DNA from: Alphaproteobacteria bacterium | GTDB taxonomy: Bacteria; Pseudomonadota; Alphaproteobacteria; Rhizobiales; Xanthobacteraceae | Assembly (NCBI GenBank): GCA_005885285.1 | Contig: VAZG01000187.1 | Coordinates: forward strand, 2,282 to 66,281 | Direction of reading: 5' to 3' | DNA: 64,000 nucleotides | The notes under the pieces: generated by a model | What the model was told of the DNA's origin: nothing | Database searches by the model: none | The model's input: only the letters and a program-made list of their open reading frames with translations | Made by a program: the position numbers and the translations under genes | Shown: positions 27,836-59,815 of the stretch, piece by piece | Layout of the letters: the number at the start of each line of letters is the position of its first letter | How positions within the stretch are numbered: the stretch's first letter is position 1

Positions 27836-27838
27836 AGC

Positions 27839-28489: not shown

Positions 28490-28628
28490 CCAGAAAGGGT
28501 GCATGCTCGGGGATCCGACGTGCGTATCTTCAGCGAATTCATCCGCGCACCCATTTTCGGGCAAGAATTGATTTCGTTTGCAAAGTGGCAAAACGTGCGA
28601 GATTGCCCTTTTGGGCCGAGCCGTTCTC

Positions 28629-29678
28629 ATGCGCTTTACCAAGCCCAGGGACCTCCGTTCGATACCGAGCGCCACCGGGGGAATCGCTCGTCTGGCATGC
28701 GTCCGAATGCGAGAAGCAGGTAAAGACATAACATCTGTTCTCTCCGGGGCAGGATTGACTATCGCGGAGGTAAACGATCCGGCCGTTCGCCTCGAGGTGC
28801 GCACCCAAATCAAGGTTTTGGAACTGGCTGCCCAAGACCTTCAAGATGAGTTTCTTGGACTTCATCTGGCCCGAGGGTTCGACCTGCGTGAAATCGGTCT
28901 GCTCTACTACGTAATGGCCTCTTCCGAGCAACTTGCGGACTCCCTTCGTAACGCAGAGCGCTATAGCGTGATGAACAATGAAGGGATCCGACTGCGCTTC
29001 CGTTCAGACGCTGCAACGGTCATAACGCTTGAATACCTGAACGTTGACCGACTTTCCGATCGGCACCAGGTCGAGTTTTGGCTCACTACAATAGTGCGTC
29101 TATGCCGACAGTTGACAAACAACCGACTAGCGCCTCGACAAATGACGCTCAGGCATTTTCGCGATGGCGCGCCCGCTGAATACAAATCGTTTTTGGCGGG
29201 TGATATTGAATTTGGTGCTGATGCCGACGAAATCGTTTTTCCGAAACATTTCGCTTCTCTTCCGATCGTCGGGGCCGACACTCACCTGAACAAATTGCTA
29301 CGGAGATATGCAGATGAAGCGCTTGCTCGCCGGCCGCAAGAGCGCAACAGCGTGCGTGCGAATGTGGAACGAGCGATTCCGGAGTTGCTTCCACATGGCA
29401 AAGCCACAATTTCGGAAGTTGCGCGCCAACTTGGTTTCAGTTGTCGTACGCTCTCGCGCGCGCTTTTGGCCGAGGGCGTAACCTTTACCAAAATACTGGA
29501 GGAATTAAGGGCTGCTCTCGCCAGACGCTACCTCAGAGATCGCGAGCTGCCTATCTCGGAAATAGCGTGGCTCCTAGGGTACCGGGAGATTGGCTCTTTC
29601 ACGCATGCATTCAAACGATGGACCGGAACGAGCCCGAGCCAATTCCGATCGTCGAGGACGCCTCCAGCCAGGAAGTAA
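28629..29678 (+). CDS. AraC family transcriptional regulator
   Basis: C-terminal double HTH (EIAWLLGYREIGSFTHAFKRWTG). Confidence 0.9.
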   Translation: MRFTKPRDLRSIPSATGGIARLACVRMREAGKDITSVLSGAGLTIAEVNDPAVRLEVRTQIKVLELAAQDLQDEFLGLHLARGFDLREIGLLYYVMASSEQLADSLRNAERYSVMNNEGIRLRFRSDAATVITLEYLNVDRLSDRHQVEFWLTTIVRLCRQLTNNRLAPRQMTLRHFRDGAPAEYKSFLAGDIEFGADADEIVFPKHFASLPIVGADTHLNKLLRRYADEALARRPQERNSVRANVERAIPELLPHGKATISEVARQLGFSCRTLSRALLAEGVTFTKILEELRAALARRYLRDRELPISEIAWLLGYREIGSFTHAFKRWTGTSPSQFRSSRTPPARK

Positions 29679-30161
29679 CCATACCAATTGCCAAATCGTC
29701 CTTCGAAGGTTTTCGGCGCCAAAACGCAAATTATTGGCACGCAATAACAAGACCGGGTTGCGGGTGTTTGTTAACACGTCAGCGCCGCCGGCCCAACGGC
29801 TCTTCGCGGTTGATCCAGTTTCATTTGGCAGAACCTGACAATGGACCGAGCGGACTTTTTATTCTGGCTTTCGCTTTTCTGGCTCTTCGTTCTGTCGGGT
29901 GCGGCGATCTGGATACTATTGGCGCCTTAGGAGAGGCCGGGGCGACGTTCGCCAGCCGGTAATACGGCAAGTTCGAACGCGCACCCGCCTTGCGTCGAAT
30001 TCTGGCACGTGTTGTCTCGGCCGGGTGTCTACTTCGCCTCAACGTCGGGCGGAGGCGACCTGCGACGAGCAATGGATTCACATCGACCATGACCGAGCAA
30101 GTGGCCGCGGAAAGTAATACGAGAATTTGTCAGCGCTGTGCGGGCCGGTCGGCTAACCTCC

Positions 30162-30588
30162 TCACCAGACTCCGTTACCGAACCAAGCAAATTGCGGTTG
30201 CCGGGCTGCCGGCAGATGTCTCTTGGCAACCTTGTATTGGCGTTGCAGCTTTGGCTTTCGCAATTTTTGGACGAATGGCTGCAATTGCTCGGTGTCGGAC
30301 AGCTGCGCAAACGCCTCACGCACCCTCACTTTGGCTGAGACGTCGGCGATCATTGCCGAGGCGTTGGCGCCGACCTCCGCGCTCGCGATCTGCACGGGAA
30401 TGATTGTCGGGAGGCTCGTATCGTAAGCAATGCGCTCCGGCCATTTCCGATCGGAATGAATACGGATGATGTACGAACCCGTGCCGGCCCTGTGCGTAAT
30501 CGGCGGTTTCGGAAGATATGCATCCAAAATAAAAAGGCAGTACGAGCAATATTCCGCCAACGAGCGAAAAATATCGCGCGAGAGGCAT
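30162..30588 (-). pseudogene. frameshifted paralog of 10301-10735
   Basis: MPLARYFSLVGG start in one frame and IRIHSDRKWPERIAYDT body in another; +1 shift near 30535. Confidence 0.7.
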
Positions 30589-30867
30589 CCGTTGCGGCAC
30601 CTGGTAAGCATTGGCAAGCATTGGTCGAAGTCGGCCCCTCCATGAATAACGACGCCAGTCCATTGGTATGATTGCGACGCCGGTCCGTCCGCTCCGCGGC
30701 GCGGCAACGAAAACGGCTATCTTGGTGGAAATCGCCGCAAACCAAGGTTGCACTCCGCGGCCCTTCGAGTCGAACTCGGGCACGGTCCTGTTGCGGCAGA
30801 TATCCGCTTTGGCCCGACCCGAGCGATCCGCGACGTCGGAAGAGTGCTATCCGCGCGAAAGATCCAA

Positions 30868-31107
30868 TCAGCGGCGACCGACGCGATCCACCGGACCGCC
30901 GCGATTCCTGGGCGTTCCAGGCGCGCCGACCCCGGGGGTCACCACCGCGCGCGCGACGGGCCGTGGACGAAGCACCACACCCGCCCTCACGGTGCAGCCA
31001 ACAGGGTAGTCGACATATTGGCAGTAGACCACGGCACCAACCTGTTCCGTACCAGCTGTTACGAAGCCAGCGACAAGCAGCGCGGATGATGCGATCAAGA
31101 ATTTCAT
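30868..31107 (-). CDS. small secreted Arg/Val/Pro-rich protein
   Basis: Signal peptide; VVYCQYVDYPVGC..RPRPVARAVV. Confidence 0.65.
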   Translation of the reverse strand: MKFLIASSALLVAGFVTAGTEQVGAVVYCQYVDYPVGCTVRAGVVLRPRPVARAVVTPGVGAPGTPRNRGGPVDRVGRR

Positions 31108-31214
31108 CTTGATCTCCCTGGGCCGGAAGTTCCCAATATTCCCCCGAGAGGGCGAACTTCAGTGCAGTCCTCTCAAAGTACAATGCGAGGATGGCGACGG
31201 GCCGATGATCAGGA

Positions 31215-31228
31215 TTGATACAGATCAA
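31215..31228. promoter_or_regulatory. FixK/FNR box
   Basis: TTGAT-ACAG-ATCAA, perfect, about 108 bp upstream of the 31107 start. Confidence 0.72.
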
Positions 31229-31257
31229 GCTCCGTTGTTCATCGAGCCGCGCCGCCA

Positions 31258-31716
31258 CTATTCAGACCACCAGCGCTTCTGCAGTTTTCCCCCCTCGTTG
31301 CCGCCTGCCGTCAGCGTCATCCGCAACACCTCGAAAATCACGGCCGTCGACCAGCCAAACAGCAGCACGCCGTTCATTGCGGTCATTGGTCCAAGCAAAT
31401 GCCAGCGGACGACCGGCGTCACGTCGCCGTAGCCGAGCGTCGTGTAGTTTACAAAGGCGAAATAGATGAGATCAGTATCTGCCGGCGCGGTATTGGTAAT
31501 CGCGTAAATCAATGACCAGACCAGCACCTCCGCCAGGTGCGCGAACATCAAGACCGTCACGGCGGCAATCATGACTGCGATCAATCGAAGCGTTTGACGT
31601 GACGTTGCCAACTCGTCCGCAATGCGCGTTACCTTTATGACGGCCGTCATCACCAAAGCATGGATCGCAATGTTGCAGACACTGGCAGCTGCGCCCACGA
31701 GATATTGACGCAACAT
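31258..31716 (-). CDS. 2-TM potassium channel family protein
   Basis: Selectivity filter TTLGYGD between TM helices. Confidence 0.85.
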   Translation of the reverse strand: MLRQYLVGAAASVCNIAIHALVMTAVIKVTRIADELATSRQTLRLIAVMIAAVTVLMFAHLAEVLVWSLIYAITNTAPADTDLIYFAFVNYTTLGYGDVTPVVRWHLLGPMTAMNGVLLFGWSTAVIFEVLRMTLTAGGNEGGKLQKRWWSE

Positions 31717-31798
31717 GGCTGTGCCTCCGGCGATGGGGCTGTTTCTTCCAGGCGAGGAATGTCGGCGATCGATTTGTATTCTCTGGCCAGTCAATGCC

Positions 31799-32590
31799 CT
31801 AATCGATGATGTGATATCCACCGTCTATGTACATGACGTCGCCGGTGATAAGTTTCGCGCCGTCGAGCGCTAGAAAAGCGGTCGCCGCACCGACATCATC
31901 GATGCTTACGAGACTTCGCGCGGGAGCCTTGGCCTGCGCCTTGTCCATCAACTCGTCGAAATCGGGAATCCCTGAAGCCGCGCGCGTCGCCAGCGGCCCC
32001 GGTGAAATCGCGTGCACCCGGATACCTTTGGGGCCGAGCTCAGCTGCCATGTAGCGAACGGCGGCCTCCAGCGCCGCCTTCGCAACTCCCATGACGTTAT
32101 AGTTCTGCACCACCATCTGGCTGCCATAGTAGGTCATGGTGAAGAGCGTACCGCCGTTCTTCATCAGCGGCTCCGCCAGATGCGCCATCCGCATGAATGA
32201 CCAGCAGGAAACGTCCATCGTCTTGAGGAAACCGTCGCGCTGAACGTCGACCACCCGCCCGTGCAGCGCCTCCTTCGGGGAGAACGCGATCGAGTGAAGC
32301 AGAAAATCGAGTCTGCCCCACTCCTTCTTGATGCGCTCGAACGCCTGTTCCATTTGTCCTTCAGCAGTCACGTCGAGCGGCATGAGGATCGGCGCCTCAA
32401 GCTCCTTCGCCAGCGGTTCGACATGTTTCTTTGCCCGGTCGTTCAGATAAGTGACCGCCAATTCCGCGCCCAGCGCCCGAAACGCCTTGGCGCATCCCCA
32501 CGCGATCGACTGATCGTTGGCGATGCCGACCACGAGTCCCTTTCGTCCTCTCAGCGCAACCTTGGTTTCGGGAAATACCGGAATTGTCAT
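31799..32590 (-). CDS. fabI: enoyl-ACP reductase
   Basis: [36 protein letters not shown]. Confidence 0.92.
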
Positions 32591-33813
32591 GAGGCTCTCA
32601 CCTGTTTTGGGATCGAAGACGAATGCCGATCACACAGCAGTGACAATGTGTGCTGCGCAATCATCAACTCTTCATTGGTTGGCACGATGTAAACGGGGAT
32701 GCGGCTACCTGCGCGAGATATCCGCGGCGCGTGCCGGGCATTCTCCGCTGGATCAAGCGACACACCGAGCCATTCGAGCCGCTCCGCAATCCTTGCGCGA
32801 ATGCCGACGGAGTTTTCGCCAATGCCCGCGGTAAAGACAAAGGCATCCAGTCCTTGCAAGGCGGCCGCCAGCATTCCGGCATGGAGCGCGACCCTGTAAA
32901 CAAAATGGTCGATCGCAAATGCCGCCCAGGGATCGCTGCTGTTCTGAAGCTCCCGCATATCGTTGCTGACGCCGGAAAGCCCCTTTAGCCCGCAATCGCG
33001 GTACAGAAAATCCTGCGCCTCGGCCGGCGACATGCCCTTTGCCGACATGAGATACAGCACGACGCCAGGATCGATCTGGCCGGTCCGCGTTCCCATGGGA
33101 AGTCCGTCGAGAGCGGTGAAGCCCATCGTGCTTTCCACGCTGCGGCCTCCGTGAATGGCGCACATCGAAGCGCCGCTGCCCAGATGCGCGACGATAACGC
33201 GCCCTTGCGCGATCTCAGGTGCGATGTTCGGCAAGCTTTTCGCGATGTACTCGTAGGAAAGTCCATGGAACCCATAACGCCGTACACCTTCATCGTGCAG
33301 CCTTCGGGGTATGGCGTAATGATCCGCCAGCTCGTCATGGTCGCGGTGAAACGCCGTGTCGAAGCAAGCGACCTGAGGCAGTGAGGGGAATTTGGCAAGA
33401 AGGGAACGGATTGGCGCCAGGTTATGGGGTTGATGAAGTGGCGCAAGCGTCGTCAAGCGCTCTAGACGCGCAACCACGCCATGGTCGATCAATACGGGCC
33501 GATCGTAATCGGGACCGCCGTGGACGACCCGATGCCCGACAGCGAGTGGACTGAGTTGGAGTTCGTCGCGCAGCCAAGCGGCCGCGACCAGCAGTGCAGC
33601 CGGAACGTCCGGAATACTCTCAATCGGATAGGCGCGGTCTGCCAGCGTATCGCCGGTCGTTCCTGTGGCGCGCAACCGGGGACGGCTTCCGATGCCGTCC
33701 ATCTGGCCCTTGATCTCTCTTCGCAGCCTGCCCTCCCCATCGAGTGCGAACACCTGGAACTTGACGCTTGAGGAGCCGGCATTGACGACCAGGATTGCAT
33801 CCATGGCGGTCAC
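32587..33813 (-). CDS. ackA: acetate/propionate kinase
   Basis: [34 protein letters not shown]. Confidence 0.93.
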
Positions 33814-34787
33814 GCGGCGGCTGTCTGCGCGCGAGTGCGGCGCGCGTTGGCATAAAGAGTAGCAACCGCGCAGGACGCCATGCGAGATCTCGGTGTATCC
33901 GCTCGAGAAGTCAGCACGACTGGAACGCGCGCACCGAGAACGATGCCGGCTCCGTCTGCCTTGGCGAAATACGTGAGATTTTTCGCAAGCATGTTGCCGG
34001 ATTCAAGATCCGGCACCAGCAGAATCTGGGCGCGGCCCGCGACCTCCGATTTGATCCCCTTGATCCTTGCCGCTTCCTTGTCGATCGCATTGTCGAACGC
34101 AAGTGGCCCGTCAAGCAGGCCCCCGGTGATCTGCCCACGGTCCGCCATCTTGCAGAGCGCCGCCGCCTCGATTGTCGAAGGTATCTTGGATGTAACGGTC
34201 TCGACCGCCGATAGGATGGCGACCCTGGGCAAGGTGCCGAAGCCCGCTTGCGTGTATAGATCGATAGCGTTCTGCACGATGTCGCGCTTGGCATCGAGGT
34301 CCGGAAATATATTGATCGCGGCGTCGGTGATAAACACCGTCTCGCTGTAAGCGGGGACGTCCATCACAAACACATGACTGACGCGCCGCTCCGTGCGCAG
34401 GCCACCGACTTTTGCCGTGACACTTCGCATGAGCTCGTCGGTGTGCAGGCTTCCTTTCATCAGCATTTCGCCCCTGGCCGCATGAATCAGCTCGACGGCC
34501 TTCGCCGCGGCGGCTTCGCTATGTGGGGTGTCGATCAGCTCAAACCCGCTGATGTCGATGTTGTGCTTGGAAGCGGCGCCCTTGATCTTCGCCGCAGGCC
34601 CCACCAGTATCGGCTTGATGATGCCAGCTTCGGCAGCGTCAGCTGCACCGCGCAGCGAGCTTTCGTCGCATGGATGCACGACGATTGTCGCTGCCGACGG
34701 GATCGCTTTCGCCGCTGCTATGAGACGATCGTATTTTGCGCCGGGCCTGGCTTCGCCCGCTTCAAGAGATGAAATGCTCATGTCCAA
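33810..34787 (-). CDS. pta: phosphate acetyl/butyryltransferase
   Basis: [34 protein letters not shown]. Confidence 0.88.
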
Positions 34788-34809
34788 CTCCCAATCGCCT
34801 CACAAAGAC

Positions 34810-37002
34810 CTATGACGCTTTCGCCTGCGGTTCCGCGGTCAGCCCAAACAGCTCAGTCACACGATCGAACCGCCTTGCGGTCTCGCCTGAGATTTTATCT
34901 CGACTTGCGGACAGCACCTCACGGATGACGTCCAGGCCAGCGCGACGTTCGGCCTCGCTCGGCGGCAGCAGTTTTGGGATGGCGGCGAGGCTCGCCTCAG
35001 GCTCGAGGAGCAGCATGAAGAACTGCTCGCGCACGATTGTCTTGAATTGCGCAAGCGTCAGGCGTGAACCGGCCACGCTCGCGCGGGCCCGCCGCAGCGC
35101 CTCCAGGCTCCGCTCGTCAACCATTCCGCGGGCCATGCCGACATAGAGCAGGCCGCGAATGACGCATTCCTTGAGACCGCCACTGGCGATCTGCGACTTC
35201 AGCTCCGCGATGCGCGTCTCCAGAAGCTTGCGATGTTCAGGCGACATCTCGGGCTTGGGCGACACATCCGCATCCGGCTTGATTCCAACCGCAGCCTGCA
35301 GCGCGGGCGATCCATAGATGCCCAGAAAAAGCGACTCGCTGACAGATTCCTGCGTGTCGCGCCAATAATCGAGAACATTGATGATGTTCTTCGAGACGGT
35401 CTCCTGGAAAGCAAGAAATGGATTATCCTCCGTCGCCGGCTTGCGGTGTTCGCGAACATTGTCAGCCGCTTCGGCGACTACCCTCATGGCCGCATTATCG
35501 CTGCCGAAGGCTTCGTACGAAAAGCGGAGCGGATGCCATTTGCGCATCCACTCCGCCAGTTGGGGAGTAACTGCGGCGCGAAGCCATGGCTGCACGAAAT
35601 TTCGGTAGTTGGCGAGGTTGATCTCGGACACCCGTGCGGCTGTCGCAAACCGCCGTTCATCCTCGGCCGTATTGCCGCCCATGGCCCGAACATCATCGAG
35701 GGTACGCTGCTCGCAACGCATGATCCACTTCCCGCCCGCAAGCTCTGCATTGGCGGTATCAGCGGATTTGGCTTCGAAGGTTGCCTCGTAAAGCCCCGGC
35801 GGGAGCACATCGATCAGGTCGATATTGCTTGAAAATTCGCTATGCTCTTTTTTGGCAACGCCGCCGGATACGAATATTCCGAGATGCCCGACCGTTTCGT
35901 GAACGGTGTAGACAATGGTCTGCCCGTAGGATCGGATCTCTTCGACGTCGCTGTAGAGATCGAGAATCCAGTGAAGCGCCTGCTGCGGCGGTGTGATGTT
36001 GTCGCCCTTTGAACAGAATACGACGATCGGTGAACGGATATTCCGCAGGTCAACAACCCTGCCGTCAGATGTCTTGATGCGCCCCGCGGCGAGCTTGTTG
36101 CCAACGAACAACTCATCGACGATGAACTGAATCTCCTCGGCATTGAGGTTGACATGTCCACCCCACCAGCGCTCGAAATCGAGATAGCGATCCGCCTCGG
36201 TATCGATCTTTGAATAGACGTTGTACTGCTTGGTCCACAGCGTGTTCGATGGATTCATGTTCTCGAAGTTCTGGACCAGCCAGGCGCCGTCGAACTTGCC
36301 GCCACCGAGGTCGCTGGTGAGGGCGGCCGACCAGCTTCCGCCCAGCAAACCGCCCGAATAGCGCATCGGGTTCTTGCCGTGGACACCGGCCCAGTAGGAT
36401 AACGGCGCACCGGCGATGATGATCGGGCCAAACAATTCCGGCCTCAGCGAAGCCAGGATCATGACGGCCCAACCGGCCTGGCAATTGCCGATCACGCACG
36501 GCTTGCCGTCGGCATCCGGATGCAGAGCGATGACCTTGTCGATGAAAACCGCTTCGGCCCGTGCAACGTCCCCGATCGTTTGGCCGGGCATTGGGTCGGG
36601 CAGGAAGCCAATGAAATAGCAGGGATGGCCGGCCTTCATTGCAACGCCGATTTCGCTGTCGGATTTAAAGCCGCCGATTCCGGGTCCGTGCCCCGCGCGG
36701 GGATCGACCACGACGAATGGACGGCGCTTCAAATCGATTTCCACTCCAGCCGGAGGAACGATACGCACGAGTCCATAATTCACCGGCCGCTTGAGGTTCC
36801 TTCCGTCGACGATTAACTCGACCTCATAGTCGAGGACATGGGGCGCGGTTTGGGCCAGATGCTCGCAATATTGAAGACCGCGCTGGCGCATGACATCCAG
36901 AAACAGGACGCTGCGTTGCCCGGTGTCCACCAGATACTCGAAGGCAGGTGCGAAAATCCCGGGCAGCGCGGCGCCCGAAACTGCCGGCTCGTTGGTTGTC
37001 AT
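34810..37002 (-). CDS. DUF3141 family alpha/beta hydrolase (PHA synthase-like)
   Basis: RPFVVVDPRAGHGPGIGGFK; nucleophile elbow GNCQAG; GHLGIFVS. Confidence 0.85.
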   Translation of the reverse strand: MTTNEPAVSGAALPGIFAPAFEYLVDTGQRSVLFLDVMRQRGLQYCEHLAQTAPHVLDYEVELIVDGRNLKRPVNYGLVRIVPPAGVEIDLKRRPFVVVDPRAGHGPGIGGFKSDSEIGVAMKAGHPCYFIGFLPDPMPGQTIGDVARAEAVFIDKVIALHPDADGKPCVIGNCQAGWAVMILASLRPELFGPIIIAGAPLSYWAGVHGKNPMRYSGGLLGGSWSAALTSDLGGGKFDGAWLVQNFENMNPSNTLWTKQYNVYSKIDTEADRYLDFERWWGGHVNLNAEEIQFIVDELFVGNKLAAGRIKTSDGRVVDLRNIRSPIVVFCSKGDNITPPQQALHWILDLYSDVEEIRSYGQTIVYTVHETVGHLGIFVSGGVAKKEHSEFSSNIDLIDVLPPGLYEATFEAKSADTANAELAGGKWIMRCEQRTLDDVRAMGGNTAEDERRFATAARVSEINLANYRNFVQPWLRAAVTPQLAEWMRKWHPLRFSYEAFGSDNAAMRVVAEAADNVREHRKPATEDNPFLAFQETVSKNIINVLDYWRDTQESVSESLFLGIYGSPALQAAVGIKPDADVSPKPEMSPEHRKLLETRIAELKSQIASGGLKECVIRGLLYVGMARGMVDERSLEALRRARASVAGSRLTLAQFKTIVREQFFMLLLEPEASLAAIPKLLPPSEAERRAGLDVIREVLSASRDKISGETARRFDRVTELFGLTAEPQAKAS

Positions 37003-37066
37003 GCTCAAATCTCTCACTCCCTGCAGCAGCCCATGCGTCAGGATTGCGCTTGGGCGGAGGAGACCT

Positions 37067-37080
37067 TTGATATAGGTCAA
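37067..37080. promoter_or_regulatory. FixK/FNR box
   Basis: TTGAT-ATAG-GTCAA, 65 bp upstream of the DUF3141 start. Confidence 0.7.
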
Positions 37081-37170
37081 GGGAGCCCGCCGCTCGCTTA
37101 ACACGTCGTTACATTGCTGCCGCGGTTTGCAAGCGAGGGAAAATAGCCACCACCGGTCGGGGTCAGAATG

Positions 37171-38292
37171 CTAACCCTCCGCGACGAGTTTTTCTCCGTC
37201 CTGCGCCGCAACAGGCGAGACAGCGCCAGCCTGATCCTCGCGGATCCATGCCGTCATCAGTTCCCAGGCTACCGCCAGGATGATGGGCCCGATAAAAAGG
37301 CCGACGATGCCATGCGCCAGCATGCCGCCCAAGACGCCGATGAAGATGACAAGCATCGGCGTGCTCAGTCCGCGTCCCATCAGCATGGGCTTCAAGATGT
37401 TGTCAGCCAGCCCCACGATCAGCAGATAGATTGTTAGCGGGAGAGCCACCGCAAACTCCTTGGTCGCCCAAATCCATATGATGACGGGAATGAGGACGAT
37501 CGCCGACCCGATCTGCAGGATTGCAAGGATCAGCACGGCGAACGCCAACGCGCCCGCGTGAGGCACGCCCGCAAGTTTCAATCCGATTCCGGCTAGCAGC
37601 GACTGGAGGACGGCAACGCCGATTACTCCCTGGGACACCGTGCGTATTGTCAGCCCTGCCAGCGCAACAAAATCATCGCTTCGCTGCGCCATGAGACGCG
37701 ACTGCATTCTTCTTGTCGCCGCAACGAGGTGCGGGCCGTGGACAAACAGGAAACCGGACAACGCCACTGACAGAACAAACTTGAGCGTACCCATGCCCGC
37801 ACTGCCGGCAAAGGCGAGTACCGGACCGGCCAGTGGCTTCAGGTGCGGAGCTACCTGACGCAACACAGCCCCAAGATTTGTAGCAGCCTGGTCCCAGAGG
37901 CCGTAAACCCGCGGACCGATGATCGGCCAGTCTTTGACGCCGTCTGGCGGCGACGGAATAGCCAAGTTGCCTGCGCCGAGCTGGCCCGCGAAGCCTTGCA
38001 ATCCATCGATCAAGCCCACTCCGAGCCACGTCACCGGTCCGATGATGATCGCGAGACTGACAGCCGTGATGATCATAGCCGCCAGCTTCGGCCGATCGCC
38101 AAGCTGTAGCGATAGCCAGCTGTACGGCGGGTACAGGGCCACGGTGAGAATCATACTCCAGGCCAGTATGGGAATGAATGGACGAACAAGGACGAACGAC
38201 CAGTAAAGTAGGAAGGTCAGCAGAGCCAGGCGGATCGCCAGTTGTGTGATCTCGTCGCCGGATTTGATTTGCCGAAACAGCCGTAGGGTCAT
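37171..38292 (-). CDS. AI-2E family transporter
   Basis: DNILKPMLMGRG..GIVGLFIGPIILA. Confidence 0.9.
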   Translation of the reverse strand: MTLRLFRQIKSGDEITQLAIRLALLTFLLYWSFVLVRPFIPILAWSMILTVALYPPYSWLSLQLGDRPKLAAMIITAVSLAIIIGPVTWLGVGLIDGLQGFAGQLGAGNLAIPSPPDGVKDWPIIGPRVYGLWDQAATNLGAVLRQVAPHLKPLAGPVLAFAGSAGMGTLKFVLSVALSGFLFVHGPHLVAATRRMQSRLMAQRSDDFVALAGLTIRTVSQGVIGVAVLQSLLAGIGLKLAGVPHAGALAFAVLILAILQIGSAIVLIPVIIWIWATKEFAVALPLTIYLLIVGLADNILKPMLMGRGLSTPMLVIFIGVLGGMLAHGIVGLFIGPIILAVAWELMTAWIREDQAGAVSPVAAQDGEKLVAEG

Positions 38293-38407
38293 CGCTTCAA
38301 CATCCCGCCCGCCCGCATTGCACGCGCAACGACTACGCGCGAACGATGCAGCATGTGAGAACCTCCATTCGCGTCCCAAGCCTATTGTCGCCTGCGCAAA
38401 CCCGGGC

Positions 38408-38421
38408 TTGATCCAGATCAA
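38408..38421. promoter_or_regulatory. FixK/FNR box
   Basis: TTGAT-CCAG-ATCAA, perfect, between divergent AI-2E and GNAT genes. Confidence 0.75.
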
Positions 38422-38510
38422 GCATCGCCAGGGCGGGATTGTTCTCCCTTGCGAGGGCATAATGCCGGCACAACGCCTTGCTGTTTCGAGCAGACCGGGA
38501 AGCATTTCTC

Positions 38511-39032
38511 ATGTCCGGAGCCGCCGACTATTCGGCCGTCGAGCATCTTCGCGACGGGCGTCCGATTGAAATTCGCGCACTTCGTCCCGATGACAGAGCC
38601 GAGATGCTCGCGGCCGTCGGACGAACCAGCACGCAATCGCTGCGACGACGCTTTTTCGTACCAAAAAAGGTTTTCTCGGAGCAGGAATTGGCGTTTTTTC
38701 TCAACATCGATTTCGAAAACCATGTCGCGCTCGTCGCGCAGATCGATGAAGACGGATCTCCGACGATCGTCGCTGGTGGACGCTATATCGTTGTCCAGCC
38801 CGGCCAGGCTGAGATAGCTTTCGTCGTGGTCGATGCCTATCAAGGTCAAGGTATTGGCACGATCCTCATGCGCCATCTTGCCGTTCTGGCGTGCGATGCC
38901 GGCCTCAACGAGCTGATTGCGGAGGTGTTACCCGAGAACACCGCGATGCTGAAAGTGTTCGGCAAATTCGGCTTTCGACCAAGCTCAAAACGGGAGCCCC
39001 AGGTCAGACATCTGACCATGCGGCTTAACTGA
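38511..39032 (+). CDS. GNAT family N-acetyltransferase
   Basis: LRDGRPIEIRALRPDD; VVDAYQGQGIGT acetyl-CoA loop; ENTAMLKVF. Confidence 0.88.
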   Translation: MSGAADYSAVEHLRDGRPIEIRALRPDDRAEMLAAVGRTSTQSLRRRFFVPKKVFSEQELAFFLNIDFENHVALVAQIDEDGSPTIVAGGRYIVVQPGQAEIAFVVVDAYQGQGIGTILMRHLAVLACDAGLNELIAEVLPENTAMLKVFGKFGFRPSSKREPQVRHLTMRLN

Positions 39033-39184
39033 GCAGGAGGGCGCGCTGCTTTTTGGTCAGAGACTTGTCGCAGCGCTTAGGTGCGTTCCCTTGTGAGGGC
39101 ACCATATGCCCCGCCCTCCAGCCTCGTTGTCCGGCCAACGAAACATTCTGGAGGGCATATTTTGTGGCGCGATCAGGTTAAGCC

Positions 39185-39454
39185 TCAGCGGCAGACATAC
39201 GACCCATTTACCAGTACGCGGACACAGCGCGTGGCGGCTGCACCAACAGTCGCTCCGCCTACTACCGCGCGCCGTGTCGTTCGTCGCGCAACGCCTGCAA
39301 CGCTCACCGGGGTTCCCGGCCGTCCCACCCTGGCCTGCGCGCTTTCAATTGACAGCGAAAGACCGTTCCTTGCTGACCAGTCTGCGGACCCTAGAGCTCC
39401 ACATGCGACAACGGCGACAACCAAACATACCTTCTTAACGCTGATTTGCCTCAT
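39185..39454 (-). CDS. small secreted protein (ESAQARVGRP family)
   Basis: LSIESAQARVGRPGTPVSVAGVARRTTRR. Confidence 0.7.
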   Translation of the reverse strand: MRQISVKKVCLVVAVVACGALGSADWSARNGLSLSIESAQARVGRPGTPVSVAGVARRTTRRAVVGGATVGAAATRCVRVLVNGSYVCR

Positions 39455-39506
39455 AGCAACCTCCTCTGCTTGTCGAAACAACGATAGTCATCGGGGACTG
39501 GCATGA

Positions 39507-39520
39507 TTGATCTAGGTCAA
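39507..39520. promoter_or_regulatory. FixK/FNR box
   Basis: TTGAT-CTAG-GTCAA, 53 bp upstream of the 39454 start. Confidence 0.7.
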
Positions 39521-39642
39521 GGAACCTCGTTGGCTTGACGTGGAGTCGCGGCAAGCCATGGCCGGGGAGCAGGACCTACCTTAGTCGCATTCCGAGAGCG
39601 AAGGCGTAGAGGTCAGGCCCACTTTCACTTCACTATGCAGTG

Positions 39643-39711
39643 CGGGCCTACTACTACGAGGGCGGCCCCTGGTGTGGCTACAGCGGGTGGGATGACTACA
39701 CGGCGCGCAAC
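39643..39711 (+). pseudogene. fragment RAYYYEGGPWCGYSGWDDYTARN, homologous to 13619-13743
   Basis: Direct similarity of the two translated fragments. Confidence 0.55.
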
Positions 39712-39744
39712 TCCCTTCACGATCATGGTTTCCAAAAATCGAGA

Positions 39745-41418
39745 TCACATCATCTGCTCAGCCGAGTGATGCTCGCCCACGGGAATAGCGAGCTCGAAAA
39801 TGGAGCCACCAGAGTCCGACTTAACAAGCCGCAATTTGCCTCCGTGGCTTTCGGCCACAGTAATACAAATAGCGAGCCCCAATCCCGTGCCGCCAGATTT
39901 CGTCGTAAAGAACGGATCAAATATGCGCTCTCGATCCTGGACAGGAATTCCGGGTCCGGAGTCTTGAACCGTCAGCAATACGGTCGAGCGGCCGTCGAAG
40001 CTCGTCGTGAGCCGCAGACGTCGTGCTTCAGGGATCACCGAGCTCATTGCGTCGATAGCGTTTTTGACGAGGTTCAAAAGCACTTGCTGGAGTTGCGTGC
40101 CATCCAGATGCACCTTCGGAAGGTTGCCTTGGAACTCTGTAGCGATAGATATCTCGTTGATTTGAAGATCGTATTGCAGCAATCTTAGTACTACCCGAAC
40201 AACATCCTCTACGTGTGCTAGCGCCCTTCGGTCGGTCGTCTTTTTCGTCAGTTCGCGCATGCTCGAAATGATTGCACCCGCGCGATAGCTTTCGGCTTCT
40301 ATGTCACCAAGGATGTCGTCCATTTCTTCCAGATCTGGAGGGTTCGAGCGCAGCTTGCTGATGGCTGTACTGGCATTAAGTGCGATAGCACCCAATGGCG
40401 TCCTTAGCTCATGGGCGACAACAGCCGTGACCGCGTCTACGCTCAAAAGCCGGTTAGCGCGTTCGCGTCGTTGCAAGATGATGGCGCTGGCGAGGCGCGA
40501 ATAGAGAAACATTGTTTCGATGAGCAACACGCTCAGCAACATGCAACTGCCGATTAGAACGAAGCAACGAGCCGCGTACCAACCGATGGAAAATCGTACC
40601 GAACTGGCGATGGCAGCAACCAGGAAGTTTGGCATCCAGGCGAGCAAAGTCACCATCAACCATAAATCGAGGATCGTGCGCCTGCGAGACAATAACACGG
40701 CGAGCGCCGTACCGCCCCAGACCCAAAGCGCAACGTTGATCTGGTTGGCGAACCGCGTTTGCAACGTCTGGTTGGCGCTGTAGAGGCTCGGGAGATAGTC
40801 CGCTTTCGTTATCACGATCCAGGCCAGTCCAGCGGTCACCCCAAGTACGCAGACAACAGTGATTCCAATAGTGGTCATCGTCGATCTGCCCGGCAGCGTG
40901 GCCGCTCCAATCGGATCTTTGGCGAGCGCATAGACGAGGATCGCGGTCGGAAACGTCGTGTGCCAAAGCACGAAGAACCAAGCTGGAGTGTTCAATTCAT
41001 CACCGATCAGACCAGCTGGCGCGTACGCCCCCGGAAACGCCAGCGTCTGCAACAGCGCAAACGAGCCGCTGAACATGTAACCGCTTGCGAGCGCGAGAAG
41101 GGCGCGCAGAGGCTGTATCGAGAATTGAGCAAACAGAAGGGTTGCCGTGATAAAATCGACAACGCTCAAGACAGTCTGCAAAACCGGAATGAAGGCATCA
41201 ACGCGAGCCACCTGTATGCTCGCGAACGGTGCGATAACAGCCGCCGCGACGGTCAAAAGGACAATGATGCCGACCGCTATCGCCTGTTGTCGTCCGGTTG
41301 CCGGCATCGTTGCGATAACTAATGGGAAATCTTGCCCCTCTTTTCGAGCAGCGTCGACTGCGGCCTCCGGCAAAACGGCCTTTCCAGAATCCGCTTGGTG
41401 AACTTGCGCCGATTTCAT
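39745..41418 (-). CDS. sensor histidine kinase with MASE4-like membrane domain
   Basis: Multi-TM N-terminus (FPGAYAPAGL..AWFFVLWH); HELRTPL, NLVKNAIDA, DSGPG and FFTTKSGGTGLGL boxes. Confidence 0.9.
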   Translation of the reverse strand: MKSAQVHQADSGKAVLPEAAVDAARKEGQDFPLVIATMPATGRQQAIAVGIIVLLTVAAAVIAPFASIQVARVDAFIPVLQTVLSVVDFITATLLFAQFSIQPLRALLALASGYMFSGSFALLQTLAFPGAYAPAGLIGDELNTPAWFFVLWHTTFPTAILVYALAKDPIGAATLPGRSTMTTIGITVVCVLGVTAGLAWIVITKADYLPSLYSANQTLQTRFANQINVALWVWGGTALAVLLSRRRTILDLWLMVTLLAWMPNFLVAAIASSVRFSIGWYAARCFVLIGSCMLLSVLLIETMFLYSRLASAIILQRRERANRLLSVDAVTAVVAHELRTPLGAIALNASTAISKLRSNPPDLEEMDDILGDIEAESYRAGAIISSMRELTKKTTDRRALAHVEDVVRVVLRLLQYDLQINEISIATEFQGNLPKVHLDGTQLQQVLLNLVKNAIDAMSSVIPEARRLRLTTSFDGRSTVLLTVQDSGPGIPVQDRERIFDPFFTTKSGGTGLGLAICITVAESHGGKLRLVKSDSGGSIFELAIPVGEHHSAEQMM

Positions 41419-41619
41419 TGCTGCGCGGTCCTGAGCGTTAGACGGTTCTATCCGTCAGGCTGGCCGAATGGAAGGGCACAGTTAGCCTCGAACAGCAGTT
41501 AGGCCAGTCGCTTGCGTCACAGTCGGACCAGCTGAACTATCGTACTTGCCAGTTAGGCTCCGGCCTCGTAGCGCCATGGCCAAGCGATCACGGCGCCGCC
41601 ATGCGCACCCTCGCAAGCC

Positions 41620-41647
41620 CATGCTTGATCTAGCTAGATCAAGCATG
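41620..41647. repeat. perfect 28-bp palindrome: FixK box with CTAG duplicated
   Basis: CATGCTTGATCTAG|CTAGATCAAGCATG. Confidence 0.9.
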
Positions 41648-41744
41648 ACCACTGCGGGTTGATCGAGGGACCTGGGCCGGGTAGCGCGGCCTTGCTATCT
41701 CCTCTGTTTGTCAAGCAAACGGTAGACATCCGGGACGAGTACCC

Positions 41745-41758
41745 TTGATCTAGGTCAA
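41745..41758. promoter_or_regulatory. FixK/FNR box with no obvious downstream gene
   Basis: TTGAT-CTAG-GTCAA, identical to the 39507 site. Confidence 0.55.
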
Positions 41759-42006
41759 GGGACAGCATTGGGCGGTTAACGCGACAGCGGCAGGTAGCGC
41801 TCGAACCATCCGAGCGTTCATTCGGACATGTCCTCAAGGACAATGTCCTTTGATGCAATTGAGAACGCAGACCCGATGGCATAGTCAGGATAAACGATCC
41901 AGGAAACGGCTGCTGCTGTTCGGGCTGGCGCACTTTCGAAAAATGGATCAGCAGCTTCGTGACTGCGAATATTTCGTCACTAGAACTTCGGCATGGGGGA
42001 CACATG

Positions 42007-42038
42007 TATTATGACCCAAGTCTATTATGACCCAAGTC
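42007..42038. repeat. 16-bp perfect tandem duplication
   Basis: TATTATGACCCAAGTC x2. Confidence 0.9.
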
Positions 42039-42446
42039 GTCATCACGGCAAGCAGCAAGCGCGACCACGCGAGCCGAGATTCTTGCGTTGCACGGAGAAC
42101 AAAACGAAACTTCCAGTTTGATTCTATGGAGGCCGTGGCACATTCCCGGTTCGAACGCGAAACCCAACGGGTAATGGACGGATTGCTGCGCGAATGTCTT
42201 GAGAGGCCAGATGCCACAGACCCCTGTGAGCGCCTCAGGCTATTGAATTCCAGGTCACTGCGGCGCCCATGCACCTGACACTCACCCCAACACCGCGGTG
42301 GGGATTAGGGCCCAGCTTTGCCGCCTGCACCGGAACAAGACAGGCGCAGTGTCCACCCTCGTTCGCTGGGCAATTCATAATCTTGCTGGTGAAGACGCTG
42401 GTAAAAACCGGCTCTCGGCTATCTTCATCAATAAAATCAACGTGAG

Positions 42447-42467
42447 CGAATCCAGCCCGGGGAGCCA
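42447..42467 (+). mobile_element. tRNA 3'-end fragment (Asn-like), putative att site
   Basis: CGAATCCAGCCCGGGGAGCCA gives T-loop, acceptor arm and CCA; the rest of the tRNA is absent upstream. Confidence 0.7.
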
Positions 42468-42818
42468 GACGCCTCTTCCGCCCCCATTCGCGGCTGTTCA
42501 CGCCCCTCCTCAAATCCGTCAAAAAGCCCTGTAAAACAAGCACTTCTTGCAGTCGCTGCGGGCCGCGCCGGTTCGTGACTATTCGCTGGCAGCCGCAAGG
42601 TTTCAGGGCATCAAAACAGAGTATCGCCAAAAAACAGGGCATGTATTTGCGCAGGGATAGACCGCAGATCGCGCAATTTTACGACAGAAGAAAACCCGAC
42701 GACCGGTCAGATTTAAATTCAGCGAAACGCACCCGACAGGCGTCGATCACGAGTTGAAGGGCTGCCAACAATCTCAAGAGTGTAGCGCCCGCTTTGCGCC
42801 TGCCCGAACGATGATCCG

Positions 42819-44660
42819 TCATCGCACACGTGCTTTGATTAACGGCAGCGTAAAGCAGAACACCGCACCGCGCAGGCGGTTTTCGGCCCAGATGGTTCCT
42901 CCGTAGCTTTCGATGATGGTTCGCGCAATCGGCAATCCCAGCCCGGTGCCTTGTGGCTTCGTCGTGACAAACGGATCGAAGATTTGCGTCAGGTTTTCCT
43001 GGCGAATCCCTGTTCCCGAGTCCGATATTCTTACCTCGGCGAAATCCGATTCCGCATTACGGCGGGTCCGAATGGTCAAATTGTGCGGTGCTGGCGCGCC
43101 TTCCATAGCGTCCATCCCGTTCATCACGAGGTTGATGATCACTTGTTGCATGTGGATCGGGTCAGCGCGCACCGACAACGCTTCAGGCGCAAGTACGGTC
43201 CGCAGTGTAATTTCCCGTTTGACGGCCTCGGGCATGACGATTTTGACCAGATCCGGAACTGTGTCGTTCAGATCCAACGCTTGCAGCTCGGCCTTTGTTC
43301 GATCGTTCAGTAGATTGCGCAAGCCACCGATGATTTCGCTCGCGCGCTGCTCGTCCCGAATAATGTCGGAAAGGATTTCGCCAATCTGAGTGAGATCGGG
43401 CGGACTGGCCTTGAGCAATATTTGCGCGGCTTCGGTATTGCTCAGAATAGCTCCCAAGGGCTGGTTAAGCTCGTGGGCGATGGATGACGACAGCACGTTT
43501 GCGGTCGTCACTCGATTCAAGCGCACGACCTGCCGGCGGCGACTTATTGCTTCAGTTTCAGCGAAATGGCGCCCGCGGTGCTCGATGACCAGCCATGCAA
43601 TGATGGCGGTCTGGAGCAGCAGAGCCGCTAAGCCCACAGTAATTTGCCAGCGGTACTGATCCCACGGGCTCGGGGGGCGAAAGTAGATCTCGCTGCCCGC
43701 CTGCAGGCGGCTTTCACTGATGTTCCAGCGCTTCAGCTCCCGCCAGTCGTATTTTGGCGCCCCGTATTCGATCGGAGGCATTTTGATCGCGCCCGGCGAC
43801 TCTCCGCTCAGGATGCGGACTGCGACGCTCGCGGCCTGTCGTCCCACATCCGCGGTATTGGTGAGCGGTCCACCAACAATCCCCCGACCAAAAAAGGTAT
43901 CGGTATGGCTAAACATCGGCACGTTGGCAACCGCGTTGAGGCGGGCAAATACTTTTCCTTCTTCATGCGTAACACCCGCCGCGTCAACCGACAGCAACCC
44001 AAAGAAGATGGCGGAGCGCGGTGGCAGCACGGCAGCCCGCTGAAGCATGTCTTCAAACGACAATTCGTTGAACCATGTAAAGGATACGCGGCTCGTTAAT
44101 GTTTGCATAGCTTCGCGCAATCGCGCTTGCCAATACCTCTCGATGGGCGAGTTACCAATCACGATCACAATATTGGTCGTCTCTGGAAGTAGCTTCAGCA
44201 TGCTCTCGACTGCACTTGCGAAATCTTTCGAGACCGCAACGACACTGTCGTTGGCAGTAAACGCGCTAAGGAGCGCTTGCCGCTGTTCGACGCCCGTGTG
44301 CACTGCCGGCACGGAGGGAAAAAGCCTCTGTCGGTTTCGCTGGAAGAAGTCTACCGCCGGCGCGCCGATGGTGATGACCAAGTCAAGCCGTCGCTTGACA
44401 AAGAGAGCGTGCAAATAATCGACAAACGGGCCCTCCTCGTCCTCGGCGAAACGCGCGGTTGCGAGCGACGTCTCAGAAATGTCGAGGGGCTCCTTCGATT
44501 GCTGCCCCAGCTCTTCGCGGATGATTCTTGCGTATTCGCTCCAGGGCGCAAAATCGCGACCGAAGGAATGCAGAAGCATGACCCGCTTTGGCTCGGAGGA
44601 CGCCTCGCCGGTCATCGCGAAGAGTAAGACGACTGCACTGAGGAGTATCCGAACTCTCAT
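42819..44660 (-). CDS. sensor histidine kinase with periplasmic ABC-binding-like domain (NodV-like transmitter)
   Basis: Signal peptide, periplasmic domain, one TM; AHELNQPL, NLVMNGMDA, DSGTG, TTKPQGTGLGL. Confidence 0.9.
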   Translation of the reverse strand: MRVRILLSAVVLLFAMTGEASSEPKRVMLLHSFGRDFAPWSEYARIIREELGQQSKEPLDISETSLATARFAEDEEGPFVDYLHALFVKRRLDLVITIGAPAVDFFQRNRQRLFPSVPAVHTGVEQRQALLSAFTANDSVVAVSKDFASAVESMLKLLPETTNIVIVIGNSPIERYWQARLREAMQTLTSRVSFTWFNELSFEDMLQRAAVLPPRSAIFFGLLSVDAAGVTHEEGKVFARLNAVANVPMFSHTDTFFGRGIVGGPLTNTADVGRQAASVAVRILSGESPGAIKMPPIEYGAPKYDWRELKRWNISESRLQAGSEIYFRPPSPWDQYRWQITVGLAALLLQTAIIAWLVIEHRGRHFAETEAISRRRQVVRLNRVTTANVLSSSIAHELNQPLGAILSNTEAAQILLKASPPDLTQIGEILSDIIRDEQRASEIIGGLRNLLNDRTKAELQALDLNDTVPDLVKIVMPEAVKREITLRTVLAPEALSVRADPIHMQQVIINLVMNGMDAMEGAPAPHNLTIRTRRNAESDFAEVRISDSGTGIRQENLTQIFDPFVTTKPQGTGLGLPIARTIIESYGGTIWAENRLRGAVFCFTLPLIKARVR

Positions 44661-54669: not shown

Positions 54670-55019
54670 AACTATCAGAACTTGACAGCACCGTTCAATT
54701 CCATGACTCTCGCACGCGGCTTGAAGCGTTCCGGTTGCTGATCAAGCATGAGCCGCAAGGCGTTGCTGCGGGCGAGTTGGCTCGTCTTCTGTCGGTGCCC
54801 CAGAATACCCTTTCAGCCCATCTGAACGTGCTGACTCATGCCAATCTGGTGACGTCGGAGCGCCGAAGCCGGTCGATCATCTATCGCGCTCGACTGGATA
54901 GGCTGGAAGCGCTTTTGCTATTTTTGATGCAAGACTGCTGCAATGGACGCCCTGATGTCAGCACTCAGGTAATGAAGAGCGTAGCGAAGCAATTTTCCGC
55001 TACAAGGAGGGAACGCTGA
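54666..55019 (+). CDS. arsR: ArsR family repressor (atypical N-terminus, two Cys)
   Basis: TRLEAFRLLIKHEP, QNTLSAHL, DCCNGRPDVS. Confidence 0.75.
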   Translation: MELSELDSTVQFHDSRTRLEAFRLLIKHEPQGVAAGELARLLSVPQNTLSAHLNVLTHANLVTSERRSRSIIYRARLDRLEALLLFLMQDCCNGRPDVSTQVMKSVAKQFSATRRER

Positions 55020-55717
55020 TGCCGACTTTCGATCTGCGTCGGCGACTCTTCGCCGAGTTACTCGGTACAGCCCTCCTAGTAACAACGGTGGTCGGCTCCG
55101 GTATCATGGCCGAAACCCTGACAAAGGATGTCGCGCTTGCCTTGCTGGGCAACACGCTTCCCACGGGGGCGATCCTTGTTGTGCTCATCACTGTGCTTGG
55201 TCCGATCTCTGGGGCTCATTTCAACCCGGCCGTCTCGATCGTATTTGCGTTGAAACGCGAGCTTAGCACTCGGGAAACTGCGCTCTATATCATAGCGCAA
55301 ATCGTCGGCGGCATCCTGGGCACGATGATTGCGCACGGCATGTTTGCACTTCCCTTGCTGGAAGCTTCGATGAAGATCCGCACAGGTGGCGCGCAATGGT
55401 TCGCGGAGGCCATAGCGGCCTTTGGCTTGGTGGCAACCATCCTAGCAGGAACTCGCTTTCAGCAAAGCGCAGTTCCGTGGCTGGTCGGACTCTATATCAC
55501 AGCAGCCTATTGGTTCACCGCATCAACCTCGTTCGCAAATCCGGCCGTTGCGATCGCGCGATCGTTCACCAACACGTTTTCTGGCATTCGCCCGCTCGAC
55601 CTGCCCGGCTTCATCATCGCGGAGATCTGCGGTGCCGTGATTGGTATGATCGTGATGGCCTGGCTCTTGCGCCCCGACCCTTACGCCAAACCGCTTGATC
55701 CGGAGGCCAAATTATGA
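55019..55717 (+). CDS. MIP-family arsenite channel (AqpS-like)
   Basis: HFNPAV and SFANPAV motifs; located between arsR and arsC. Confidence 0.88.
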   Translation: MPTFDLRRRLFAELLGTALLVTTVVGSGIMAETLTKDVALALLGNTLPTGAILVVLITVLGPISGAHFNPAVSIVFALKRELSTRETALYIIAQIVGGILGTMIAHGMFALPLLEASMKIRTGGAQWFAEAIAAFGLVATILAGTRFQQSAVPWLVGLYITAAYWFTASTSFANPAVAIARSFTNTFSGIRPLDLPGFIIAEICGAVIGMIVMAWLLRPDPYAKPLDPEAKL

Positions 55718-56130
55718 GCGTGACCATCTATCACAATCCGGATTGCGGTACGTCGCGCAATGTACTCGCCATGATCAGACAGGGCGGAATCGAGCCTGAG
55801 ATCGTTGAATATCTAAAAACGCCACCATCGCGCGAGAAACTGATCGAATTGATCAAAGCGATGAACGTCAGCGTCCGGGCGCTTCTGCGGGAGAGGGGCA
55901 CGCCATATCACGAACTTGGTCTATGGGAGGCAAATTTGACGGACGACCAGCTAATCGACCAGATGCTCGCGCACCCGATCCTGATCAACCGTCCCATCGT
56001 GGTGACGGATAAAGGCGTGATGCTTTGCCGTCCGTCCGAGACCGTTCTTCCCCTGCTTCCTAACCCGGATATTGGGCGGTTCGTCAAGGAAGACGGCGAG
56101 ATTGTCGAGGCCGGTGCTCTTAAAGATTAA
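55714..56130 (+). CDS. arsC: glutaredoxin-dependent arsenate reductase
   Basis: HNPDCGTSRN, HPILINRPIV, CRPSE. Confidence 0.93.
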   Translation: MSVTIYHNPDCGTSRNVLAMIRQGGIEPEIVEYLKTPPSREKLIELIKAMNVSVRALLRERGTPYHELGLWEANLTDDQLIDQMLAHPILINRPIVVTDKGVMLCRPSETVLPLLPNPDIGRFVKEDGEIVEAGALKD

Positions 56131-57282: not shown

Positions 57283-57286
57283 AGAT

Positions 57287-57310
57287 GCCCGGGCACCTTG
57301 GCACCCGGGC
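57287..57310 (-). terminator. hairpin downstream of aioA
   Basis: GCCCGGGTGC-CAAG-GTGCCCGGGC (two G-U pairs) followed by ATCTTT. Confidence 0.45.
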
Positions 57311-59803: not shown

Positions 59804-59815
59804 GATCTTCTCTCC

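Follow-up and report, generated by a model that had tools for sequence, protein, structure and literature searches.

A copy of the tRNA-Asn 3′ end as the probable attR of an integrative and mobilizable element carrying a FixK/FixJ-type low-oxygen gene set in a soil Bradyrhizobium

In Bradyrhizobium japonicum USDA6T, a 14.9-kb genomic island named BJ6TGI10 occupies trnN-GTT and is accompanied by a 53-bp duplication, and several islands can be stacked at one tRNA gene (trnK, trnQ, trnI) in this species (PMC3927601). Three integrative and mobilizable elements (IMEs) of Mesorhizobium likewise adjoin tRNA-Asn, and those with delineated boundaries are of the MOBF (traACD) type (PMC8627217). The arrangement of an incoming element beside a decayed resident is described by the accretion model of cis-mobilizable elements (CIMEs) (Pavlovic 2004 and Bellanger 2011, as reviewed in PMC5704250). 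Here we analyze a 64,000-nt stretch of DNA, hereafter the window (C301:2282-66281), from G000, a metagenome-assembled genome (MAG) of a soil Bradyrhizobium that comprises 6.24 Mb in 623 contigs and is 94% complete. A 28-bp repeat in the window is very probably the right attachment site (attR) of an IME of about 47.7 kb, IME-1, which has integrated at the 3′ end of the only tRNA-Asn(GTT) gene and has the remnant of an older island in tandem at its right.

The 21-mer CGAATCCAGCCCGGGGAGCCA occurs once in the window, on the forward strand at 42447-42467, and was matched in 0 of 100 dinucleotide shuffles of the window. A first-pass annotation of this DNA had taken it for the 3′ end of an Asn-like tRNA whose remaining gene was missing, that is, for the attR scar of a tRNA-targeting element; the description is confirmed and the reading as attR is supported. 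ARAGORN finds no tRNA gene in the window, so the 21-mer is a tRNA fragment without a remaining gene. The genome search proposed in that annotation yields one further exact copy (n = 2), at C16:5496-5516, which is the 3′ end of an intact tRNA. This parent is a 75-nt tRNA-Asn(GTT) gene at C16:5442-5516, the sole tRNA-Asn among the 41 tRNAs of the assembly, and the 21-mer covers its positions 55-75 (3′ half of the T-loop, 3′ strand of the acceptor and encoded CCA). Identity between the two loci lengthens to a 28-bp exact direct repeat, CGAATCCAGCCCGGGGAGCCAGACGCCT, shared by window 42447-42474 and C16:5496-5523; it consists of tRNA positions 55-75 plus 7 nt, breaks off sharply at both edges and has the same orientation in both places. 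A genome-wide search with a 32-mer, tolerating seven substitutions, gave no attachment (att) core beyond these two copies. Rfam returned nothing meaningful for positions 41900-43000, since the tRNA model requires more than a 21-nt fragment and none of the remaining RNA families suits the sequence. As an att junction this is a textbook case, and the element may still be able to excise today.

An intact tRNA, probably with an integrase, had been predicted to lie upstream of the window, and both are found on contig C16. The gene order there is valS (reverse strand), a TolC-like gene (reverse), pcm (reverse), tRNA-Asn (forward), an integrase open reading frame (ORF), a helix-turn-helix (HTH) ORF and the C-terminal part of a DUF3363 protein that runs off the contig. 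The integrase ORF begins 227 nt past tRNA-Asn (C16:5744-7087) and encodes a P4-type tyrosine integrase of 447 aa with Arm-DNA-bind_3 (E = 9e-25) and Phage_integrase (E = 2.8e-10) domains. The small ORF that follows has an HTH_17/TIGR01764 excisionase-type domain and scores over the TIGR01764 cutoff. As the tRNA and the integrase point away from the core genes, the island runs rightwards, so that for a repeat of like orientation the island lies to the left, as it does in the window. The relaxase is found in a 647-aa ORF at C301:2-1942, completed by C16, with a DUF3363 match at E = 3e-105; its best NCBIfam match is RlxS (NF041267; 627 bits, model positions 3-622 of 654), and we refer to it as RlxS-like.

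The two contigs overlap at the relaxase. Over its first 397 nt, C301 aligns with C16:8476-8872, in like orientation, with 373 of 397 positions identical (~94%) and the first 73 nt exact; third codon positions account for 16 of the 24 mismatches, and the relaxase ORF remains open across the joined contigs. Imperfect end-to-end overlaps of this kind number 162 in the MAG (86-100% identity), as expected for a MAG assembled from a mixed population. On these sequence grounds C16 likely joins C301, which gives a repeat-to-repeat distance of 47,707 bp and places the start of the element ~5.2 kb to the left of the window. Further relaxase modules of the bin lie on C11 and C574. A first look-up for a metagenome contig spanning relaxase, integrase and tRNA found none; a second returned 17 contigs, and all six of those shown break at the relaxase module. 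No exact contig-end overlap was found for the right ends of C301 and C230. Beside the relaxase start, a module of ~780 nt (C301:2093-2871, reaching window position 590) is shared at 82-86% with C11, C574 and the IME of G143, and is a candidate origin of transfer or recombination module.

Related elements show how the ends are paired. Integrase homologues (E ≤ 1e-60) are present in 17 of 300 congeners, and the gene lies beside tRNA-Asn in G121, a soil MAG (86% identical), in G122, which is B. australiense WSM 1791, and G254 (71% each), and in G309 (56%). Each of these carries a second core in the same orientation downstream on the same contig, at 57.2 kb in G121, 19.6 kb in G122, 18.7 kb in G254 and 12.4 kb in G309. 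The single contig of G121 presents tRNA-Asn, integrase, HTH gene, relaxase, a hypoxia cargo collinear with window 18-39 kb, and the repeat; through these related elements, the pairing of the two att ends is independent of the C16-C301 join. Between G121 and G000 the core-like flanks are 91-96% identical and the cargo only 67-79%. That the cargo is far more diverged than the core implies an exchange of whole elements after the hosts split, and this contrast is the best available evidence of mobility. In the distant species G004, a homologous hypoxia block with 10 FixK boxes fills the whole interval from tRNA-Cys to tRNA-Asn (C17:75000-109400) and looks like a decayed, anchored version of the element.

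Conservation at the ends follows the same limits. About 115 nt of the inner attR arm and ~70 nt of the inner attL arm are kept between G000 and G121, identity at attR ends just past the core, and the sequences outside attR are unrelated in the two genomes. The motif GCTGGTAA has four exact copies in the 75.9-kb merged sequence, all within 190 nt of the two att cores and represented in both inner arms; these copies are candidates for the arm-type sites that an arm-binding integrase would recognize. A perfect tandem repeat of TATTATGACCCAAGTC further inside attR is possibly an accessory-factor site. The expected attP joint reads from the inner right arm ...AAAATCAACGTGAG through the core into TATTCGCTGCTACTCGC..., and the expected attB joint from tRNA-Asn ...GGTCGCTGGTT through the core into CTTCCGCCCCCATTCG.... 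The surroundings of the repeat had been described as AT-rich with short repeats on both sides; the repeats are present, and the AT-richness is only relative, local GC being ~56-58% against 61.9% in the genome.

The occupied junction is reproducible. Two independent soil-metagenome contigs, Ga0209577_10011686 and Ga0066673_10000184, carry the island end, the repeat and the right flank at 99-99.8% identity. Neither window flank adjoins tRNA-Asn in 24 congeners, in which only synteny of the outer flanks could be shown. The comparison with other genomes that had been suggested is informative at this level: in G012, G020 and G022, the outer flanks (pcm/tRNA-Asn on one side, tRNA-Cys and a gene of contig C230 on the other) are only 5-14 kb apart and the block is missing between them. 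The tRNA itself varies in its setting, as tRNA-Asn with ~80 nt of upstream sequence (G000 C16:5360-5516) is inverted relative to pcm in about half of the congeners searched (e.g. G007, G024, G011, G009, G008, G002 and G019), and collinear in G000, G013, G020, G017, G004, G012 and G001. In the complete genome G005 (C1:3785727-3802302), pcm and the 3′ end of tRNA-Asn are ~15 kb apart, and the interval is probably another island at the same tRNA with a cargo unrelated to that of the window.

To the left of the repeat, the window is, by its gene families and promoter boxes, a low-oxygen gene set that is predicted to be controlled by FixK/FixJ-type regulators and carried by IME-1. Pfam and NCBIfam matches include an ATP-synthase a-chain paralogue, a B-family haem-copper oxidase with c-type cytochromes, DUF2254, an aquaporin, SulP, PPK2, a receiver protein, FixJ-type and FixK-type regulators, a CoA-transferase, FabI, AckA, a Pta-like protein, DUF3141, an AI-2E transporter and a MASE4 histidine kinase. 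The best NCBIfam match of the FixK-type regulator is FixK at 214 bits, below the cutoff of 300, and that of its divergent neighbor is FixJ at 185 bits, also below cutoff; the FixK-type protein is the sole such match (E ≤ 1e-15) in the bin. A FixJ-type paralogue, 54% identical to the regulator of the island, is encoded at 46080-46721 in the older right-hand block. FixK boxes of the form TTGAYNNNNRTCAA number 33 in the genome, and 11 of them are inside the island, where ~0.01 per 45 kb would be expected by an estimate from base composition. They run from 1549 to 41745, with none at 41746-64000, and thus stop just left of the repeat as first described. All 14 boxes on the 110 kb of the G121 contig that were examined are within its element, the last one ~700 nt before attR, as in G000. 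GC content is 61.9% in the genome, 63.6% in the core flank on C16, 59.1% in the island and 58.6% right of the repeat. The proposal in the first-pass annotation that the whole 1-42 kb block is island cargo is borne out by its place inside a repeat-bounded unit and by its island-like GC relative to the core flank.

Three details of the cargo sequence may be recorded here. Four independent metagenome contigs have ~117 nt of extra sequence at window position ~735 (C301:3016/3017), which falls within the ATP-synthase a-chain ORF (485-1294), and the MAG may have collapsed or deleted a segment at this point. The adjoining 610 nt are 94.8% identical to the element of G121, the remaining cargo being at ~70-79%. 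Contig Ga0066673_10000184 is 111 nt longer than the window at 39716/39717, a point shortly past the MASE4 histidine-kinase gene.

The scanned ORFs of the element gave no match to families of type IV secretion or coupling proteins; some small ORFs match nothing at all, and the join sits at a contig break. With its own relaxase and neither pore nor coupling protein, the element is by gene content an IME, not a plain island or an integrative and conjugative element (ICE). In relatives, TrbE-type secretion systems with their own DUF3363 relaxases are encoded outside the tRNA-Asn elements (G122 C24, ~790-798 kb; G309 C105), and mobilization in trans by such ICEs would be a plausible route of transfer.

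The sequence to the right of the repeat belongs to another island. Window 42447-42642 aligns with the 3′ end of tRNA-Asn in G143 and the ~175 nt that precede its integrase, with 172 of 197 positions identical (87%; local alignment score with z ~96), and no other flank outside attR had comparable similarity. Among the 300 congeners, this arm is found only in G143 and G301, in each case immediately after the 3′ end of an intact tRNA-Asn and ahead of an integrase or what remains of one; the integrase of G143 is 48% identical to that of IME-1 (44% by tblastn). In G000 the homology ends ~40 nt short of the expected integrase start, no integrase remnant was detected right of the arm in the window, and the island of G143 and the right-hand block have no cargo homology. 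Because the right-hand block opens with the left arm of an integrase-less tRNA-Asn island, it is the stump of an older island brought into tandem by accretion and not core DNA. It displays the features of accretion, namely a second element that has the att core in common with the first, is devoid of genes for integration and transfer, and retains the arm next to its att site. Tandem islands had been raised tentatively in the first-pass annotation, and the 168 nt of foreign arm give that idea substance. Candidates for a third core were limited to two-mismatch matches at chance level on unrelated contigs.

The older block continues from a histidine-kinase gene, which adjoins tRNA-Asn in 0 of the 24 congeners (the right flank is absent or placed elsewhere in them), through the arsenic cluster to PhoB-type genes, where C301 ends before the block does. 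Beyond tRNA-Cys in G012, G020 and G022 lies a gene matching C230 of G000, which also holds tRNA-Cys. Right of attR, G121 has segments 91-96% identical to C212, C311, C61 and the tail of C230, followed by tRNA-Cys, and lacks the arsenic block; this block is also missing from the tRNA-Asn to tRNA-Cys interval of G004. The right-hand block is accessory DNA, as it is absent from this interval in both G121 and G004. That the arsenic block might be a tRNA-Cys island was considered and rejected, as no 3′ duplicate of tRNA-Cys was found anywhere and no integrase follows tRNA-Cys. The features of the window are collected in Table 1.

Table 1. Features of the window, with coordinates counted from its first letter.
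Feature	Position	Strand	Remarks
att core, 28-bp direct repeat	42447..42474	+	Probable attR of the 47.7-kb element, also attL-type core of the older island remnant
Inner right arm of IME-1 (P-arm-like)	42330..42446	+	Candidate arm-type sites GCTGGTGA (42385-42392) and GCTGGTAA (42397-42404)
Perfect 16-nt tandem repeat, TATTATGACCCAAGTC x2	42007..42038	+	~400 nt inside attR
Remnant left (integrase-proximal) arm of a second, older tRNA-Asn island	42475..42642	+	168 nt; repeats ACAGAGTAT/ACAGGGCAT at 42604-42642
IME-1 cargo	1..42446		Between the two repeats if C16 joins C301; GC 59.1%; collinear with the G121 element and the G004 block
FixJ-type response regulator (receiver + LuxR/GerE)	25091..25921	-	Divergent from the fixK-like gene
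FixK-type CRP/FNR regulator	25924..27042	+	Pfam HTH_Crp_2/Crp/cNMP_binding; true start probably internal
FixK-type boxes, TTGAYNNNNRTCAA	span 1549..41758		1549, 11020, 15109, 22067, 24035, 27098, 31215, 37067, 38408, 39507, 41745
Sensor histidine kinase with periplasmic ABC_sub_bind-like domain	42819..44660	-	Pfam; first gene of the right-hand block
Arsenic cluster	55019..64000		Pfam: aquaglyceroporin, ArsC, MoeA, AioA, AioB, ArsR, ArsR-LMWP, GAPDH, ArsJ

A sequence of events that would account for this arrangement can be proposed. The gene families suggest that the P4-type tyrosine integrase, which has an arm-binding domain, recombined a circular attP with the T-loop and acceptor 3′ end of tRNA-Asn. 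The incoming element would have brought a replacement 3′ end, leaving tRNA-Asn intact at attL, and the displaced original 3′ end would have stayed behind as the 28-bp duplicate at attR. IME-1 would have entered the tRNA-side att site of a resident decaying island, that is, between this island and the tRNA, and the repeat would now form the shared junction of a tandem array in which the histidine-kinase and arsenic block belong to older accessory DNA. Transfer of IME-1 would need a helper ICE, because it encodes no type IV secretion system or coupling protein.

Several observations weigh against an IME that is still mobile and bounded as described. VirB4/TrbE (PF03135) and VirD4/TraG (PF02534) are absent from the whole bin, which leaves no helper in evidence. 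Neither an empty site (attB) nor a circular junction (attP) was seen, and a probe of metagenomes with the repeat and right flank retrieved two contigs that are both occupied. For the older island, the 94%-complete assembly, in which C301 ends before the block does, yielded no distal att site. The matches to RlxS, FixK and FixJ are all under the NCBIfam equivalog cutoffs, and with a score below the curated value of 850 the relaxase is RlxS-like, not RlxS. The C16-C301 join rests on an overlap of ~94% that is not exact, and the second relaxase module on C11, 85.6% identical to that of C301, could in principle be the partner of C16. Finally, the G004 block has no integrase, relaxase or second repeat and stands at core-like divergence, which allows long vertical residence in some lineages. 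From the missing helper, the one occupied junction in three assemblies and the G004 block, it could be argued that the repeat is a true attR of an element that is now anchored, with neither excision nor transfer, and inherited vertically like the chromosome. We take this possibility seriously without considering it probable. The 447-aa integrase ORF is intact with both domains, and the ORFs for the excisionase-type protein and the relaxase are intact too; the copies of the 28-bp repeat agree without a mismatch, and the arms have been conserved; the divergence between the cargoes of G000 and G121, set against that of their core, also implies whole-element exchange after the hosts had separated.

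The imperfect overlap bears on a different concern, that the ends are mis-paired: C16 would continue into the relaxase module of C11 with other cargo, and the block in the window would be a second, related element, either in tandem or from a merged strain. The repeat would still be an attR, but of an element with another size and other content. The end of C11 encodes a relaxase N-terminus with 90% protein identity to that of C301, its geometry fits the open end of C16, and all six metagenome contigs shown, of the 17, break near the relaxase. We nevertheless regard such a mis-pairing as unlikely, as C16 agrees with C301 at 94.6%, including the exact stretch at the contig start, and C11 with C301 at 85.6%. 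The assembly also has only two att cores and one integrase of this type, and both inner ends match the two ends of the single-contig element of G121. Less likely still is the view that the chromosome between tRNA-Asn and tRNA-Cys has contained the hypoxia block from ancestral times and that only a small integrase-HTH-relaxase module was inserted at the tRNA, the downstream 28-mer being unrelated. The G004 block at this site, at core-like divergence and without mobility genes or repeat, speaks for it; against it, the 32-mer search detected no repeat between relaxase and cargo, the repeats enclose module and cargo together in both G000 and G121, the inner attR arm beside the cargo is kept in these two genomes with the same GCTGGTAA motif as the integrase-side arm, and G012, G020 and G022 have no block at the site. 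A chance match or an assembly chimera might be suspected in so fragmented a MAG, and is effectively refuted by the exactness of the 28 bp, the shuffles, the recurrence of the junction in two independent assemblies and the same architecture on single contigs of four relatives. An island bounded by the two repeats, with an older remnant at its right, is thus the reading that we retain.

On this reading, the hypoxia block is the cargo of a bounded, probably mobilizable element, the arsenic block is accessory DNA from an earlier occupation of this hotspot, and neither is core; hence the FixK-boxed oxidase, the DUF3141 module and the ArsR-controlled aio genes are to be read as island-borne traits. 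The interval from tRNA-Asn to tRNA-Cys emerges as a Bradyrhizobium integration hotspot that serves two or more integrase types sharing one target specificity, and accretion at one tRNA is a well-known route of bacterial genome growth. We further suggest, tentatively and as a possibility that falls short of being probable, that IME-1, the G121 element and the decayed G004 block are members of a tRNA-Asn element family that moves a complete, self-regulated FixK regulon as a unit among free-living soil Bradyrhizobium. If so, the unit would comprise the regulators, the B-family oxidase, PPK2, the DUF3141/pta/ackA/fabI module and 11-14 boxed promoters. The capacity to live at low oxygen would then be a transferable, replaceable cassette and not a core trait, with the element supplying the only FixK-type regulator of the genome. 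The locus itself is a clear example from a non-pathogen of a transcription factor that travels with most of its boxed target promoters.

Among the described systems, IME-1 can be likened, by description, to BJ6TGI10. Both are found in the same genus and target gene, with an intact tRNA and a partial 3′ duplicate, a GC of ~59% below the genome average and an integrase on the tRNA side; IME-1 differs in its size of ~47.7 kb, its 28-bp duplication, its relaxase, its FixK/FixJ regulon and the integrase-less remnant that it abuts. With the Mesorhizobium IMEs it shares a tyrosine integrase, a gene of the recombination-directionality-factor type, a relaxase, the lack of a type IV secretion system, the tRNA-Asn target and a variable cargo, whereas it differs in having an RlxS-like relaxase that contains DUF3363 and in that no gene for a coupling protein was detected in it. 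In common with the ICEMlSymR7A family (IntS, RdfS, RlxS), IME-1 has an integrase of P4 type beside the 3′ end of a tRNA, a small excisionase-type protein with an HTH domain and a relaxase for which RlxS is the best NCBIfam match. Members of that family are defined by a self-encoded trb secretion system and TraG; IME-1 has neither, carries no symbiosis genes, targets tRNA-Asn and not tRNA-Phe, and scores 627 against the 850 of RlxS. The tandem arrangement resembles the accretion model in that two elements of unrelated cargo share an att core, the resident without integrase keeps its att-proximal arm, and two distantly related integrase types (48%) have the same target specificity; a true CIME has both att sites, and the older island here is perhaps further decayed and not cis-mobilizable. 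An island at trnN-GTT in Bradyrhizobium (PMC3927601) and IMEs at tRNA-Asn in Mesorhizobium (PMC8627217) are thus already known. What is less ordinary at this locus is the cargo, a self-regulated FixK regulon that lineages have exchanged and that att sites delimit in two genomes.

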